The notes beneath the pieces were generated by a model, which had not been told where the DNA came from, ran no database searches, and saw only the letters and a program-made list of their open reading frames with translations. Below are positions 19,636 to 25,138 of a DNA stretch of 64,000 nucleotides, one piece after another. Each line of letters opens with the position of its first letter. Within the stretch, counting starts at the first letter, position 1. Source of the stretch: Patescibacteria group bacterium (GTDB lineage Bacteria; Patescibacteriota; Patescibacteriia; SG8-24; DYFX01); NCBI GenBank assembly GCA_030583805.1, contig CP129476.1:604129-668128 (forward strand). Direction: 5' to 3'. The position numbers and the translations under genes were made by a program.

Positions 19636-20349
19636 TTATTCGGTCACGGCTGCAGCTTCCGTAGCGGGAGCCGCTTCCTGCGCGACCGGCGCCTCTTCGG
19701 CCGGCTTCTTCGCGGAGATGTATTTCATCGCGCCTTCCGGAGCGACGACGAGGAGGGTCGTGCCGCGCGCGCCCGGAACCGCGCCTTTGACGGCGATGAG
19801 TCCCTGTTCAGCGTTCACGTCAACGATCTCGAGATTCTTCACCGTCACGCGGTCGCCGCCCATGCGTCCGGCCATGCGCTGGCCCGGATGCACGTGCTGG
19901 TGGCCGCCCGCGCCGATCGAACCCGGCATGCGGAGGTTGTCCTTGTGACCGTGGGTCGCAGGACCGCCGCCGAAACCGTGGCGCTTCACGACGCCCTGGA
20001 AGCCCTTACCCTTCGAAAGGCCCGTAACGTCGATGACGTCGCCGGAAACGAAGGATTCAGGATCGCAGACCGCACCGACTTCGATCCCTTCGACGGAATC
20101 GAGGCGGAATTCGCGGAGCGTGGCGAGGTCGCCATGCTCGGCAACGGGCTTCAAATGCCCGACCTGCGGCTTGGCGAGGTGCTTCTTAGAGCCCGTGCCG
20201 ACCTGGACCGCGACATAGCCGTCCGTGTCGGAAGTCTTGACCTGCGTAATGACGCAGGGCTCGACCTTCACGAGCGTCACCGGCACCACTTCGCCCGAAG
20301 GGCGGTAGCGCTGGGACATTTCGAGTTTTCGTCCGATGATGAATTTCAT
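19636..20349 (-). CDS. rplC: 50S ribosomal protein L3
   Basis: 237 aa, ...TQVKT...GKGFQGVVKRHGFGGGPATHG. Confidence 0.9.
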   Translation of the reverse strand: MKFIIGRKLEMSQRYRPSGEVVPVTLVKVEPCVITQVKTSDTDGYVAVQVGTGSKKHLAKPQVGHLKPVAEHGDLATLREFRLDSVEGIEVGAVCDPESFVSGDVIDVTGLSKGKGFQGVVKRHGFGGGPATHGHKDNLRMPGSIGAGGHQHVHPGQRMAGRMGGDRVTVKNLEIVDVNAEQGLIAVKGAVPGARGTTLLVVAPEGAMKYISAKKPAEEAPVAQEAAPATEAAAVTE

Positions 20350-20677
20350 AGTTCTCTTAGGCAGAGGAACACTTAGTTATGTTCGATGCCTGTCTCCGTT
20401 TCGCTTGGGATCCTCCCCCGTCCTGCGCAATAACAGAAACAAGAAGTTCCGGCGCCGATCCTTCCGAACATGTTCGGGGGATATCAGCGAAGAAACTTCT
20501 TGCATCTGTCACGTACGCGTGGCTTGGCGTTGTCGAGACAAGTCAGGTTGTAGCGGGAACTCTCACTCTCGCGAAGGATGCATCCAGAGGTTTTGGCGCA
20601 GTAGCCACCAGGAAATCATGCCATCTTTCTCTGCCGTTCCATGCGAGGTTGAGTTGTCACTCGGGCTCGGACCGATC
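20350..20677 (-). other. 328-nt noncoding spacer between rpsJ and rplC inside the ribosomal operon; candidate structured leader or ncRNA
   Basis: No ORF of 60 aa or more on the operon strand even with alternative start codons. Contains perfect palindromes CCGAACATGTTCGG and GGATGCATCC, and C5/G5 tracts able to pair over long range. Confidence 0.3.
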
Positions 20678-21016
20678 TTACATTTTGATCTCGACGTCGA
20701 CGCCGGCCGGGAGGTTCAGGGACATCAGCGATTCGACCGTTTTCGGAGTCGGATCGACGATATCGATGAGCCGCTTGTGCACGCGCATCTCGTACTGCTC
20801 GCGGGCGTTCTTGTGAACGAAGGTCGAGCGGTTGACGGTGTACTTGTGCTTTTCGGTCGGAAGCGGGACGGGACCTTTGACGGAAGCGCCGGTGCGCTGC
20901 GCCGTATCGATGATCGTGCGCGTGGACTGGTCGATGACCTTGTGGTCGTAGGCGCGGATCTTGATGCGGACGCGGCTGGCCGCCGTCGTTTCGTCAGTCT
21001 TGGTTTTCTTCTCCAT
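20678..21016 (-). CDS. rpsJ: 30S ribosomal protein S10
   Basis: [39 protein letters not shown]. Confidence 0.9.
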
Positions 21017-21076
21017 AAAGATCGTTTTCAGCAGGCAACCCCGGCCCCCTTAATGGGGGTCGGGGTCGGTGCATTG

Positions 21077-22270
<1,194 letters not shown>

Positions 22271-22429: not shown

Positions 22430-22891
22430 TTATTCCAGGGGCTCTAAGTAGAACTGTTCCTCCCCCTCTTGGTCCTGTGCCGCATTTTGCGGGGTGGGAG
22501 GCGGTTGGAGGGGGTTCGGGCGGGGTTCCGGCGCCAGTTTCGGGCGCGGTTCCGGAGGTTTTAAAGCTTCCGGAGCTGGCCGTTCATCGATCCGGGGCCG
22601 GTCCTGAGCCAGGCGTGGGCCGGGTGGCGGAGGCTGCGGCGGAGCTTTCCAAAGCGGGATTTCGCGTTTTGGAGGCTTATTATCGGGGAAACTCGTGGAA
22701 ATCGGCAGGGTTTGCGGCGGCGCCGGGTCGCGTTTCATGACCTCAGGCTTCCACTCGCCGACGACCAGTTTTTCGTAATGGTCGAGCCCCATGAGCACGA
22801 AGGGGTTCTCTCCCGCCGGGTCGGTGATGACCAAGCGATCCCCCGTTTTTTCAATCAGGGAGAGAAGGCGTTTGAGTGTTTCTTCCTTCAT
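22430..22891 (-). CDS. hypothetical protein: Phd/YefM-like N-terminal fold followed by a proline-rich tail
   Basis: Start MKEETLKRLLSLIEKTGDRLVITDPAGENPFVLMGLDHYEKL (ATG 22891), then PxxP-rich low-complexity APPQPPPPGP...PEPRPKLAPEPRPNP. Confidence 0.45.
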   Translation of the reverse strand: MKEETLKRLLSLIEKTGDRLVITDPAGENPFVLMGLDHYEKLVVGEWKPEVMKRDPAPPQTLPISTSFPDNKPPKREIPLWKAPPQPPPPGPRLAQDRPRIDERPAPEALKPPEPRPKLAPEPRPNPLQPPPTPQNAAQDQEGEEQFYLEPLE

Positions 22892-22959
22892 AGGCAAGGC
22901 CGTTAAGTGGCCACACTGTAGCGCGTCCGGGCCGGGTGTCAACCCATAGAAAAAACCCG

Positions 22960-23172
22960 TCACCGCGAGGCGGAACGGGGTGGCCGATACACGGTTCGCG
23001 CCTTGGGGAGCGGCGCGCGAGCGGGCGGTCGAACTTCGAGAGCGTCGCGCTTGGCGAACACGTGCTGCAGCACGACGGCCAGGGCAATCAACATCACGAC
23101 GGCCGCGAGAATGATGAACGCGGACACGAAGAGCACCAAGAGGGCAGCAGCCAGGAGAGCGAAGAACAGCAT
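22960..23172 (-). CDS. small single-TM hypothetical protein
   Basis: MLFFALLAAALLVLFVSAFIILAAVVMLIALAVVLQHVF, about 70 aa. A longer N-terminus is possible (track ORF 22960-23238). Confidence 0.3.
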   Translation of the reverse strand: MLFFALLAAALLVLFVSAFIILAAVVMLIALAVVLQHVFAKRDALEVRPPARAPLPKARTVYRPPRSASR

Positions 23173-23260: not shown

Positions 23261-23869
23261 TTAGGAAGCCTTCTCTGCGCTCGTCGACTCTGCTGGATAC
23301 AGATCGTCGATCGTCGCGTTTGCCAAGATCAGCAGGAGTTCGAGCTGGCCGTCCGCGAGCATTGCGGCCTGGCCATTCTCTCCCCCGCGTATCGCCCTGC
23401 GACGCGCGCGGGCTCGAGCGATCAGGGCCTGGTAGTGCAGATCACGCAGCTCGACCCAAGTCGTGCCGATCGCTTTCCAGTCATATGCGTGATTCGCTTT
23501 TCGCAGGTGCTCGGTGAGCTCCGGGATGCACGTGAGCGGTTCGTGATTGTTCCGACGCAGATCCTCAAGGAGCTTCATGGCCGCGTTCAGATGCGCATTC
23601 CATCGAAACTTCTCGAGCTCGTCAGGATGTGTGCCGATATCTTCGTACTCCAGGCCGTGCTCGCTGCACGCGTTCTTGAGGTACTGCAGGTCGTGAAGCG
23701 TCTCGTTCCCGCGCATGGCATGCACGCGCCTGCGGAGCAAATCGCGTTCCGTGATCCGCTTTCTGCTTTGTTTCTCACGAGCCTTCTTCCGACCGACGAG
23801 AAACCAAAGGGGTACGACGACGACGCAAAGCGCGGCAAAAATGATTGCAGAGAGAACGAGCGGATGCAT
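23261..23869 (-). CDS. membrane-anchored hypothetical protein, about 200 aa
   Basis: Start MHPLVLSAIIFAALCVVVVPLWFLVGRKK (ATG 23869), then a charged helical domain. No recognised motif. Confidence 0.45.
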   Translation of the reverse strand: MHPLVLSAIIFAALCVVVVPLWFLVGRKKAREKQSRKRITERDLLRRRVHAMRGNETLHDLQYLKNACSEHGLEYEDIGTHPDELEKFRWNAHLNAAMKLLEDLRRNNHEPLTCIPELTEHLRKANHAYDWKAIGTTWVELRDLHYQALIARARARRRAIRGGENGQAAMLADGQLELLLILANATIDDLYPAESTSAEKAS

Positions 23870-23948
23870 GAAATCCTCCTCCGATGGCGGAAGAATCGCA
23901 TGGTGTATGCGCCGTGTCAATATAAAAACGCCCCGGACAGCAGGGCGC

Positions 23949-24206
23949 TTACTCGAAGATTGCGGACAGGCGGCGCGCCGCGCGGCACGCACGCCAGGAA
24001 CGTATCCAGTCCCCGACGAGCGTATGGCATATCGCTCCGCCACTCAGCGGCAGCAGGCTGAAGATCGGAAGGAACGTCGCTTTGGAAGCGAGGGAGATCC
24101 TCGGATCCGACGCGAGCGCGTACATCCCGTTTGCGCCGAAGCCGATGTAGAACAGGCCGACGAGCACAAGAAGAACCTCTCCCAAAATGCGCGTGTGCAT
24201 CGGCAT
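23949..24206 (-). CDS. small two-TM hypothetical protein
   Basis: MPMHTRILGEVLLVLVGLFYIGFGANG...LPIFSLLPLSGGAICHTLV. Confidence 0.3.
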   Translation of the reverse strand: MPMHTRILGEVLLVLVGLFYIGFGANGMYALASDPRISLASKATFLPIFSLLPLSGGAICHTLVGDWIRSWRACRAARRLSAIFE

Positions 24207-24272: not shown

Positions 24273-25043
24273 CTAGGCCGGCTGCAAGGCGTTTTTTCGA
24301 TAGAGATCATGGGCTTCGCGCCACATCCGCAACGTCTGGTCCCAACGAAGGGGTTCGATCGAGTAGAGATGACAGCGCGCGCCGTTCCGGCCGAGGAGCA
24401 AATCGTACTTCAACGCGTGGTACGTGCCGACGATGACGACGTCCGGCCGTTCGCGATCAAGCACGTCGAGACTGTGTCTTTCGCGACGAATCGAGGTATA
24501 GGCCGGCTGAAGATCGTTCCATTCCAGGCTCTCAGCCCACTGACTTTCCTCGACGAGAGGGCTCGCCCTGTCTTGCATGACCCACGCCTGGAAGTCCGGA
24601 TGCTCGAGCGGCAGGATTTCCATGCCCGCGTCGATGCAATGAAGCATCCCCTTGTGGCTGCCGGACAATGAACGCTGGTAGCTCCTCAGATCGTCGACCA
24701 ATTCGTCCGACGGCTTTTCGCCTCGGATCGTCTTGTTCGCCGCATACTCCTTGGCACACCGCAGGAAGTCGCTGAGCCACTCAAGCTGCTGCGGCATCAT
24801 TTCCGCACCGATCCGCAAACGCCGTTCCGGCAGGACTCCGCCGAACGATTCAGCGATCACTTTCGGGAAGTCCCATGGGACGTCGTGGCTGTTGCCGATA
24901 ATGAGCGGATCGTACCCTTCCCGCTTCATGCGCTCGACGGCCGGCGGATAGATGCCTTCGGTGATGCGAGAGAACTCTTCCTCCAGATGCGCCGGCGCGG
25001 CGTCGCCGAACTCCTCGAAACAGAACTTCGGTGCGTACGGCAT
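24273..25043 (-). CDS. hypothetical protein, about 256 aa
   Basis: Start MPYAPKFCFEEF (ATG 25043). No motif recognised by eye. Directly downstream of fusA on the same strand. Confidence 0.5.
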   Translation of the reverse strand: MPYAPKFCFEEFGDAAPAHLEEEFSRITEGIYPPAVERMKREGYDPLIIGNSHDVPWDFPKVIAESFGGVLPERRLRIGAEMMPQQLEWLSDFLRCAKEYAANKTIRGEKPSDELVDDLRSYQRSLSGSHKGMLHCIDAGMEILPLEHPDFQAWVMQDRASPLVEESQWAESLEWNDLQPAYTSIRRERHSLDVLDRERPDVVIVGTYHALKYDLLLGRNGARCHLYSIEPLRWDQTLRMWREAHDLYRKNALQPA

Positions 25044-25138
25044 AGCTCCTCCTTTTGCCGACTGAAAAAGATACCTGGTTGAAGCTCGCATGTCAATGCA
25101 AAAACGCCCCGCGGATGCGGAGCGTTTTCGGGAAAGGC

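Follow-up and report, generated by a model that had tools for sequence, protein, structure and literature searches.

A long spacer separates rpsJ and rplC in a clade of Patescibacteria

The gap between the genes for ribosomal proteins (r-proteins) S10 and L3 in a Patescibacteria group bacterium contains a conserved RNA element, described here, that includes an internal-loop hairpin, termed motif 1, and a terminator-like hairpin. The locus lies in a 64,000-nucleotide (nt) stretch of DNA, hereafter the window, whose minus strand carries an operon with the order fusA, three unassigned open reading frames (ORFs), tuf, rpsJ, the gap, rplC, rplD, rplW and rplB. Pfam matches support the identities of S10, L3, L4, L23 and EF-Tu. 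The original prediction, made from the letters of the window, had singled out a 328-nt S10-L3 gap, and the ORF list and Pfam matches place it in a minus-strand operon at exactly the coordinates given there (Table 1). GC content is ~0.63 in the genes on either side of the gap, versus 0.51-0.55 inside it. RNA transcribed from the gap on the operon strand folds with a z score of -3.86 relative to shuffled sequences, and the opposite strand has a z score of -1.47.

Table 1. Features of the S10-L3 gap and the genes that flank it
Feature	Positions in the window	Strand	Remarks
tuf (EF-Tu)	21077-22270	minus	ORF and Pfam
rpsJ (S10)	20678-21016	minus	Gene upstream of the gap; ORF; Pfam PF00338, E = 5.8e-38
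S10-L3 gap	20350-20677	minus (operon strand)	328 nt
Variable linker behind the S10 stop codon	20635-20677	minus	Poorly conserved, with insertions and deletions
Motif 1	20584-20634	minus	P1, AAAGA, U:A-closed P2 hairpin, AAAC, P1'
Motif 1, helix P1	20629-20633 with 20585-20589	minus	CAGAG pairs with CUCUG
Motif 1, 5' loop strand	20624-20628	minus	AAAGA
Motif 1, helix P2	20620-20623 with 20594-20597	minus	UGGC...GCCA
Motif 1, 3' loop strand	20590-20593	minus	AAAC
Middle region	20513-20583	minus	Purine box GAGAGUGAGAG; UACAAC within 20546-20553; CUUGUCUC at 20535-20542; hairpin ACGC..GCGU at 20515-20530
Terminator-like (attenuator) hairpin	20430-20512	minus	Free energy ~ -32 kcal/mol
Hairpin, lower stem	20496-20502 with 20440-20446	minus	CAAGAAG pairs with CUUCUUG; extended by pairing of GUGACAGAUG with the U-rich tail
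U-rich tract	20429-20439	minus	UUUCUGUUAUU
Post-terminator segment	20360-20428	minus	Window's subgroup only; ~60-nt invariant runs among close relatives
Post-terminator hairpin	20407-20418	minus	GGG-GAGGAU-CCC
Conserved sequence in the post-terminator segment	20390-20397	minus	GGAGACAG
Stem-loop near the ribosome-binding site (RBS)	20360-20390	minus	GGCA..UGCC around GAACAU/GUGUUC
Last 10 nt of the spacer	20350-20359	minus	UAAGAGAACU; weakly Shine-Dalgarno-like
rplC (L3)	19636-20349	minus	First gene of the presumed regulated operon rplC-rplD-rplW-rplB...; ORF and Pfam

Searches with L3 against genome and metagenome collections assign the window to the Patescibacteria, or Candidate Phyla Radiation (CPR), and its relatives carry labels such as Uhrbacteria, Magasanikbacteria and "Patescibacteria group." We took the length of the S10-L3 spacer for 140 loci (single loci are cited below by identifiers such as L001, which stands for the 173-kb contig CAYNUS010000002.1). 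S10 is at least 69% identical in 42 of these loci; their spacers have a median of 290 nt, and 35 of them reach 190 nt or more, spanning 192-512 nt. The median for the remaining 98 loci is 91 nt, and the E. coli junction measures 32 nt, so the gap is indeed unusually long, as had been claimed. In 12 further close relatives (L3 68-96% identical), the spacers measure 296-417 nt.

The spacer holds no conserved reading frame

Within the gap, the operon strand has no ORF of 60 amino acids (aa) or more, as the original prediction had said. It had also recognized only a 42-aa reading frame, which is real (ATG start, 20377-20505) but is accompanied by two others that were overlooked, one of 51 aa (GTG start, 20357-20512) and one of 32 aa (20373-20471). 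When frames were compared over 15 relatives, the 42- and 51-codon frames were kept only in the window and its nearest relatives, L163, L165 and L166. Both are disrupted or out of register in L164 (L3 91% identical), L001, L081 and L167-L174, and in all distant relatives. No gene is called within the spacer on any of 12 public contigs of close relatives.

Insertions and deletions (indels) between the spacers of relatives have lengths that are not multiples of three, and tblastx matches of the spacer occur equally in all six frames, to near relatives only, with nothing to more distant spacers. From motif 1 onward, the spacer is 80-82% identical to L001 and L081; identity is 81-83% for the L3 coding sequence and 78-79% for the third codon positions of S10. 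A small-protein gene was rejected, because no frame is kept among the relatives in the face of stops, frameshifts and these indels, and because of the six-frame tblastx pattern. The same observations speak against the decayed gene that the original prediction had offered as an option.

Motif 1 is a covarying hairpin with nearly invariant loop bases

Motif 1 was recognized first by eye and then by pattern search; a global MAFFT alignment of the distant spacers was too noisy and was replaced by an analysis anchored on the motif. In the window the motif reads GCAGAG AAAGA UGGC...GCCA AAAC CUCUGG, and it comprises two helices, P1 and P2, and ~9 conserved unpaired bases. Across relatives, P1 has 4-7 base pairs (bp), and P2 spans 10-80 nt, its smallest version being UCC-GCGA-GGA. 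One subclade has the form AAAU-AAGAUC...GAAAAC-AUUU, and a compact form of ~31 nt, GGAG-AAAGAUCC-loop-GGAAAAC-CUCC, occurs in L082, L084 and L101.

In a seed alignment of 15 sequences, 93% of cells are paired, versus 45-61% when the 3' partner is slid. Pairing of P1 belonged to the filter by which this seed was selected. Pairing of P2 did not, and P2 is 96-97% paired, with both sides changed in three of its four pairs. A model-derived alignment of 23 sequences, which leans toward the modeled structure, has 90% of cells paired and both-sided changes in 7 of 10 pairs.

A covariance model of the motif, R1, gives a single match in the window (E = 6e-9). Over 172 related loci (~0.85 Mb), all matches at E < 1e-3, including those to sequences outside the seed, are on the operon strand and upstream of rplC, with one per locus. 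They sit inside the S10-L3 spacer wherever the locus contains rpsJ; L107 ends short of that gene. The motif is found in the window and 33 loci at E < 1e-3, and in 34 loci at E < 0.01 (22 plus 12 more). As is seen with r-protein leaders, a covarying structure lies upstream of rplC on the operon strand in all 35 instances. The GC content of the spacers varies from 20 to 58% between genomes, yet the loop nucleotides hardly change at all, and conservation of this kind in unpaired bases suggests that motif 1 has a specific binding partner.

A terminator-like hairpin precedes rplC

Nearly every member has a second hairpin downstream of motif 1, at a distance of 82 nt in the window and of 60-207 nt in the relatives measured. 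Its layout on the transcribed strand, a stable stem-loop with a U-rich tract directly behind it, is that of an intrinsic (Rho-independent) terminator; U makes up, on average, 7 of the first 10 bases past the stem (range 5-8 in relatives). The lower stem is kept in sequence, as GG-CUAGAAG...CUUCURG generally and as CAAGAAG...CUUCUUG in the window's subgroup. At least 10 contiguous pairs are retained in 19 relatives, of which the lower 7 are conserved in sequence and the upper ones are represented by up to six pair types. The hairpin and its covariation also emerge from RNAalifold runs on two independent sets of sequences. A simple terminator scanner overlooked the hairpin of the window, owing to its long loop and branches. 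A sequence pattern for the hairpin has a single occurrence in the window (20437-20502) and 16 on the operon strand of S10-L3 spacers. Another 12 occurrences lie elsewhere in 0.8 Mb, and some of these are the same hairpins read from the opposite strand or come from spacers of loci that lack S10.

Two of the checks proposed with the original prediction gave positive results: the operon strand folds better than shuffled sequences, and at the same junction in relatives long spacers and motif 1 recur, with covariation in motif 1 and the terminator. The specific features to which that prediction had pointed are present in the window, namely the palindromes CCGAACATGTTCGG (20464-20477) and GGATGCATCC (20576-20585) and the tracts C5 (~20477-20481) and G5 (~20415-20419), but they do not hold up as functional features. 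The apex of the terminator-like hairpin is variable: CCGAACAUGUUCGG in the window corresponds to CCAGGAUCCCUGG in L001, long insertions are found in L164 and L169, and the apex is absent in L171, leaving GCAAGAAGUUU-UUG-AAACUUCUUGU. Because the apex varies by compensatory replacement in relatives and can be deleted, the palindrome at 20464-20477 is a dispensable hairpin tip. The second palindrome is not conserved, and neither is C5/G5 pairing, since L001 has no C5 tract.

Large indels between close relatives are found only at hairpin tips and in linkers between helices (L164 1123-1500, L169 196-612, L171 491-902). L164 has an additional 28 nt behind the GGGGGAGGAUCCC hairpin, a hairpin is replaced in L169, and L171 has lost the terminator apex. 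Indels limited in this way are typical of a structured RNA.

Terminator-like hairpins are also seen outside the group that carries motif 1. Relatives with short spacers and no motif 1 (L089, L097, L111, L130, L128, L047, L138) have a terminator-like hairpin and U run that stop 10-25 nt short of the L3 start codon. Motif 1 may be younger and less widespread than attenuation or partial termination ahead of rplC. In other Patescibacteria, unrelated ORFs of 80-215 aa occupy S10-L3 gaps of 600-1460 nt (L042, L044, L048, L063, L047/L144, L036, L114, L127), and they frequently lie on the opposite strand. Their uptake at this point indicates that the junction accepts insertions and marks a transcription-unit boundary throughout the phylum.

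Transcription of the leader

Seven AT-rich relatives (L105, L091, L086, L104, L102, L012, L010) have near-consensus sigma-70 promoters in the spacer (TTGACA-17-TATAAT, matching at 11-12 of 12 positions), and the -10 element ends 26-30 nt upstream of motif 1 in all of them. Given this constant spacing, a transcript that begins behind rpsJ is expected to reach motif 1 after ~20 nt. With promoters upstream of motif 1, both the motif and the terminator lie in a 5' leader. The hairpin ends 17-147 nt before the L3 ATG among relatives. Where this distance is only 17-28 nt (L090, L009, L088, L101), there is no space for another promoter, and therefore rplC must be transcribed through the terminator. 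For the operon of the window, the only promoter-like site found is upstream of tuf, and the leader is probably reached there by read-through from tuf-rpsJ.

Other conserved parts of the spacer

The linker behind the S10 stop codon carries a 55-nt insertion in L001 and L081. The middle region is near-invariant among 15 close relatives, and distant relatives have analogous AGGAG and AAAGCC boxes there. RNAalifold pairs CUUGUCUC with GGAGACAG, the latter being downstream of the terminator.

Between motif 1 and the terminator lies an A-rich stretch (UACAAC, CUUAACAAC, AUCUUAACA, AAAACAAC) that is faintly reminiscent of boxA, the NusB/S10 site, and in many relatives the AGGAG purine box precedes it. 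It is seen at ~20546-20553 in the window and in L101, L012, L010, L008, L009, L098 and L106. Relative to the boxA consensus (about GCUCUUUAACAA), only partial matches are found (CUUAACAAC, UACAAC), by eye, in some relatives. A leader peptide behind the AGGAG box was also considered and was rejected, because inspection by eye gave no consistent start codon or frame.

In the 15-sequence subgroup that includes the window, conserved elements continue beyond the terminator, whereas in distant relatives this segment is absent or different. L167 has lost the first post-terminator block and keeps the RBS-proximal stem-loop by means of compensatory changes (CAAUC/GAUUG). We regard the post-terminator elements as lineage-specific additions that may act on translation. 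Two other pairings proposed in this region were discarded. One, GUUCC..GAAC beside the rplC start codon (motif 3), was rejected as a general feature because it is found in only 8 sequences. The other, a long-range GGCAGAG:CUCUGCC pairing, was predicted from three sequences and is not kept in L001, L167 or L174; with 15 sequences it gives way to the local GGCA/UGCC stem.

Comparison with known RNA families

Rfam 15 contains 4227 models, including known r-protein leaders, riboswitches, 6S, SRP, RNase P and tmRNA. A search of the whole window at the gathering thresholds produced no match within the gap, and at E values up to 10 the gap has only a spurious small nucleolar RNA match of 10 bits on the opposite strand. 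The covariance scan for known small RNAs (sRNAs) and leaders that the original prediction had recommended therefore identified no family. An ARAGORN scan for tRNAs and tmRNAs also found nothing in the gap. Rfam 15 is likewise without a model that matches the E. coli S10 leader. Neither an rpsJ-rplC leader nor r-protein leaders of Patescibacteria turned up in our literature searches.

A candidate r-protein leader with an attenuator

For E. coli and a small number of phyla, the feedback leaders of r-proteins have been well charted. To our knowledge, little is understood of how other bacteria balance the S10/L3 operon, which is the largest r-protein operon. Patescibacteria are uncultured, have very small genomes and carry unusual ribosomes.

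We consider it reasonably probable that, in one clade of Patescibacteria, the gap is a cis-acting 5' leader RNA of the rplC (L3-L4-L23-L2...) operon, and that it serves autogenous r-protein feedback by way of an attenuator. An internal regulatory leader with an r-protein autoregulatory element was among the options first offered for the gap, and it fits the nucleotide conservation, the covariation, the operon strand and the terminator-like attenuator before rplC. The candidate expression platform is the hairpin and U tract located between the promoter or motif 1 and rplC, where we infer that termination is conditional.

In the proposed mechanism, transcription would enter by read-through from tuf-rpsJ and, in several relatives, also from a dedicated promoter just past rpsJ. 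Motif 1, with its A-rich AAAGA/AAAC internal loop, would fold first in the nascent RNA, and the stable hairpin and U-rich tract would then form an intrinsic terminator that serves as the attenuator. If r-proteins are in excess over free rRNA, a protein encoded downstream would bind motif 1, and perhaps also the conserved foot of the terminator. Binding would increase termination at the attenuator and thereby lower synthesis of the whole operon. By precedent the candidate ligand is L4, although L3, S8 or another protein might have this role. Rather than switching between two structures in the classical way, the leader may work as in control by E. coli L4, where the protein stabilizes the paused complex at a leaky terminator.

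The precedent comes from E. coli, where uL4 binds upstream leader elements and, with NusA, raises termination at the attenuator hairpin of the S10 leader by stabilizing the paused complex (PMC3616713, PMC10931766). Like that leader, the patescibacterial element appears to combine an upstream structured element with a leaky attenuator and no evident antiterminator, and this arrangement favors r-protein feedback with L4 as the default candidate. The same genes (L3, L4, L23, L2...) are involved, and one or more hairpins come before a U-tract terminator ahead of the first regulated gene. However, the E. coli leader is located 5' of rpsJ, whereas the patescibacterial element is between rpsJ and rplC, such that S10 is outside its control. 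Comparison by eye revealed no counterpart of motif 1 among helices HD-HG of the E. coli leader and no AAAGA/AAAC loop in HD or HE. Moreover, the lower terminator stem is conserved in sequence in the patescibacterial element, and the clades differ, since, according to Fu et al. (2013, PMC3616713), only Gammaproteobacteria have the L4/S10-operon control element. The original prediction had imagined a relocated element, but with no similarity to the E. coli S10 leader detectable by eye, the element looks like an independent invention. It is best filed as a new, unrelated r-protein leader or attenuator that is a functional analogue, not a homologue, of the E. coli L4 leader.

The candidate L4 leader of Archaeoglobi is also found directly upstream of rplC (Eckert and Weinberg 2020, PMC7247131). 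In that case, too, the unit is rplC-rplD-rplW-rplB with S10 outside it, and the leader was predicted comparatively, with its ligand assigned by precedent. In contrast to the present element, it is archaeal and has no terminator platform described; no Rfam match was obtained here at E values up to 10, if the family is in release 15. The L20 leader of B. subtilis infC-rpmI-rplT is a long, r-protein-responsive 5' leader that acts through an intrinsic terminator (PMC1865079, PMC3616713), but it controls a different operon and relies on alternative terminator and antiterminator structures and on mimicry of the L20 site in 23S rRNA, neither of which was detected in the tests made here.

The E. coli S7 (rpsL-rpsG) and S8 (rplX-rplE) operators are similar in that a regulatory RNA lies between two co-directional r-protein genes (PMC2704228). 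However, they act on translation, are ~30-100 nt long and have no terminator. The E. coli S8 site bears a loose likeness to motif 1 as a helix with a small A-rich internal loop (UAAGU/GAUAC, 16S h21, versus AAGAU/GAAAAC of motif 1). This likeness is only a lead, because motif 1 has one extra base per strand relative to the S8 core and no pair of the A596-U644 type.

Several observations weigh against regulated termination by a bound r-protein. Forcing or blocking P1 causes no consistent change in the pairing probability of the terminator 5' arm (p = 0.89). Duplex energies of the middle region with the terminator foot have a mean z of -0.46 relative to dinucleotide shuffles, which is marginal (p = 0.06). 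Thus, two pairing tests detected no mechanistic coupling between motif 1 and the terminator. A consensus scan found no sigma-70 promoter in the spacer of the window or of its GC-rich relatives. In the window, the U tract UUUCUGUUAUU is interrupted, and the hairpin ends 90 nt, rather than ~20 nt, before the ATG. Finally, searches of E. coli 16S, 23S and 5S rRNA, with R1 on the rrnB operon with filters off and with regular expressions for the two loop strands and their flanking helices, gave no credible mimic of motif 1.

An antiterminator switch was rejected, as neither pairing test supports it. One subclade has a conserved AAGCCAUUCU box that is complementary to AGAAGGCU; this box is the sole consistently best partner of the terminator foot. 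By-eye likenesses of motif 1 to H43/H44, H65, H66, h41 and h21 were judged to be due to chance or too loose.

Alternative explanations

The absence of detectable coupling would also suit a plain operon boundary without feedback. In such an arrangement, a constitutive leaky terminator would follow tuf-rpsJ, motif 1 would act in stability or processing (as an RNase site, or as a structure that protects a 3' untranslated region or a 5' end), and read-through or an unrecognized promoter would set a fixed ratio of EF-Tu and S10 to the downstream products. The S10-L3 junction is clearly a unit boundary in other Patescibacteria, by virtue of short spacers with a terminator-like hairpin before rplC or of inserted ORFs, and a GC-rich hairpin is also present behind tuf. 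However, a generic terminator would not hold the lower stem CUAGAAG/CUUCUAG across spacers of 20-58% GC. A strong promoter followed by a terminator 17-60 nt before the first gene is sensible only if termination is conditional or partial, and the strict conservation of unpaired bases in motif 1 again suggests a specific partner. A boundary of this kind strikes us as unlikely.

The leader might instead be controlled by something other than an r-protein ligand, either as a boxA-type site for antitermination or repression by NusB/S10, or as a riboswitch for a small molecule or ion in which motif 1 is the aptamer and the terminator is the platform. An aptamer followed by a terminator is indeed a riboswitch-like layout. 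Likewise, Nus factors can regulate mRNAs via boxA (PMC10931766), rpsJ is the gene for NusE and lies immediately upstream, and the boxA-like stretch (CUUAACAAC, UACAAC, AUCUUAACA) falls between motif 1 and the terminator in several relatives. We nevertheless regard this class of explanations as unlikely. Motif 1 is a very small two-helix structure that is simpler than most known aptamers, no Rfam riboswitch matches even at E values up to 10, and the boxA-like stretch is weakly conserved and was noted by eye. In addition, the gene context is solely that of r-proteins, which in known cases is indicative of r-protein ligands (PMC7247131). A more specific version is doubtful to a like degree: motif 1 would be a compact aptamer or a NusB/S10 loading site whose signal sets attenuator read-through for the fused S10-spc-alpha cluster in a major clade of Patescibacteria. 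If true, it would amount to a master valve, dependent on growth rate or Nus factors, that is specific to these organisms with their reduced genomes.

We consider it quite improbable that the spacer holds a free-standing gene that has a promoter and terminator of its own and encodes a trans-acting sRNA of ~200-250 nt. A discrete unit that starts ~20 nt before motif 1 is indeed framed by a strong promoter and the terminator in seven relatives. Attenuated leader transcripts would also accumulate as an RNA of this type. However, the position and strand are invariant, directly upstream of rplC, and several genomes have no space for another rplC promoter. Conserved structure in the window's subgroup runs past the terminator to the ribosome-binding region of rplC, and there is no match to known sRNA families, including 6S, SRP, RNase P and tmRNA.

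That the gap is a small-protein gene, using the 42- or 51-codon frame that the window shares with three nearest relatives, or the remnant of a decayed gene is very improbable indeed in light of the disrupted frames, indels and tblastx results described above.

Significance

The element is a solid candidate from comparative genomics and not a new kind of system. A conserved leader that combines a simple binding motif with an attenuator would give initial access to r-protein regulation in Patescibacteria, and it would offer a compact new module of RNA-protein recognition for study in vitro. It would also explain the recurrent "empty" gap of 200-500 nt in hundreds of metagenome-assembled genomes. 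Finally, it would mean that S10 (NusE) in this clade is expressed with EF-Tu and is uncoupled from the L3 operon, as in archaea.

Neighboring genes

The 60-nt spacer between tuf and rpsJ (21017-21076) contains a GC-rich hairpin of ~12 bp on the minus strand (~21038-21067), ACCCCGACCCCC-AUUAA-GGGGGCCGGGGUU, with no U tract behind it. This hairpin could be a stabilizer, a processing site or a pause site between EF-Tu and S10.

The genes fusA and tuf, which are usually adjacent, are split in the window by three minus-strand ORFs of 177, 260 and 272 aa (22430-22963, 23261-24043 and 24273-25091) that have no Pfam match. The 177-aa ORF is very proline-rich. In DNA of 60% GC, some of these ORFs may be spurious.

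Two r-proteins encoded downstream of the gap have unusual ends. L23 (18578-19000, minus strand) has an N-terminal extension of ~45-50 aa, rich in Lys, Ala and Glu, and its Pfam domain starts at residue 52. L3 has a C-terminal tail of ~35 aa, rich in Ala, Glu and Pro, that is common to L001.

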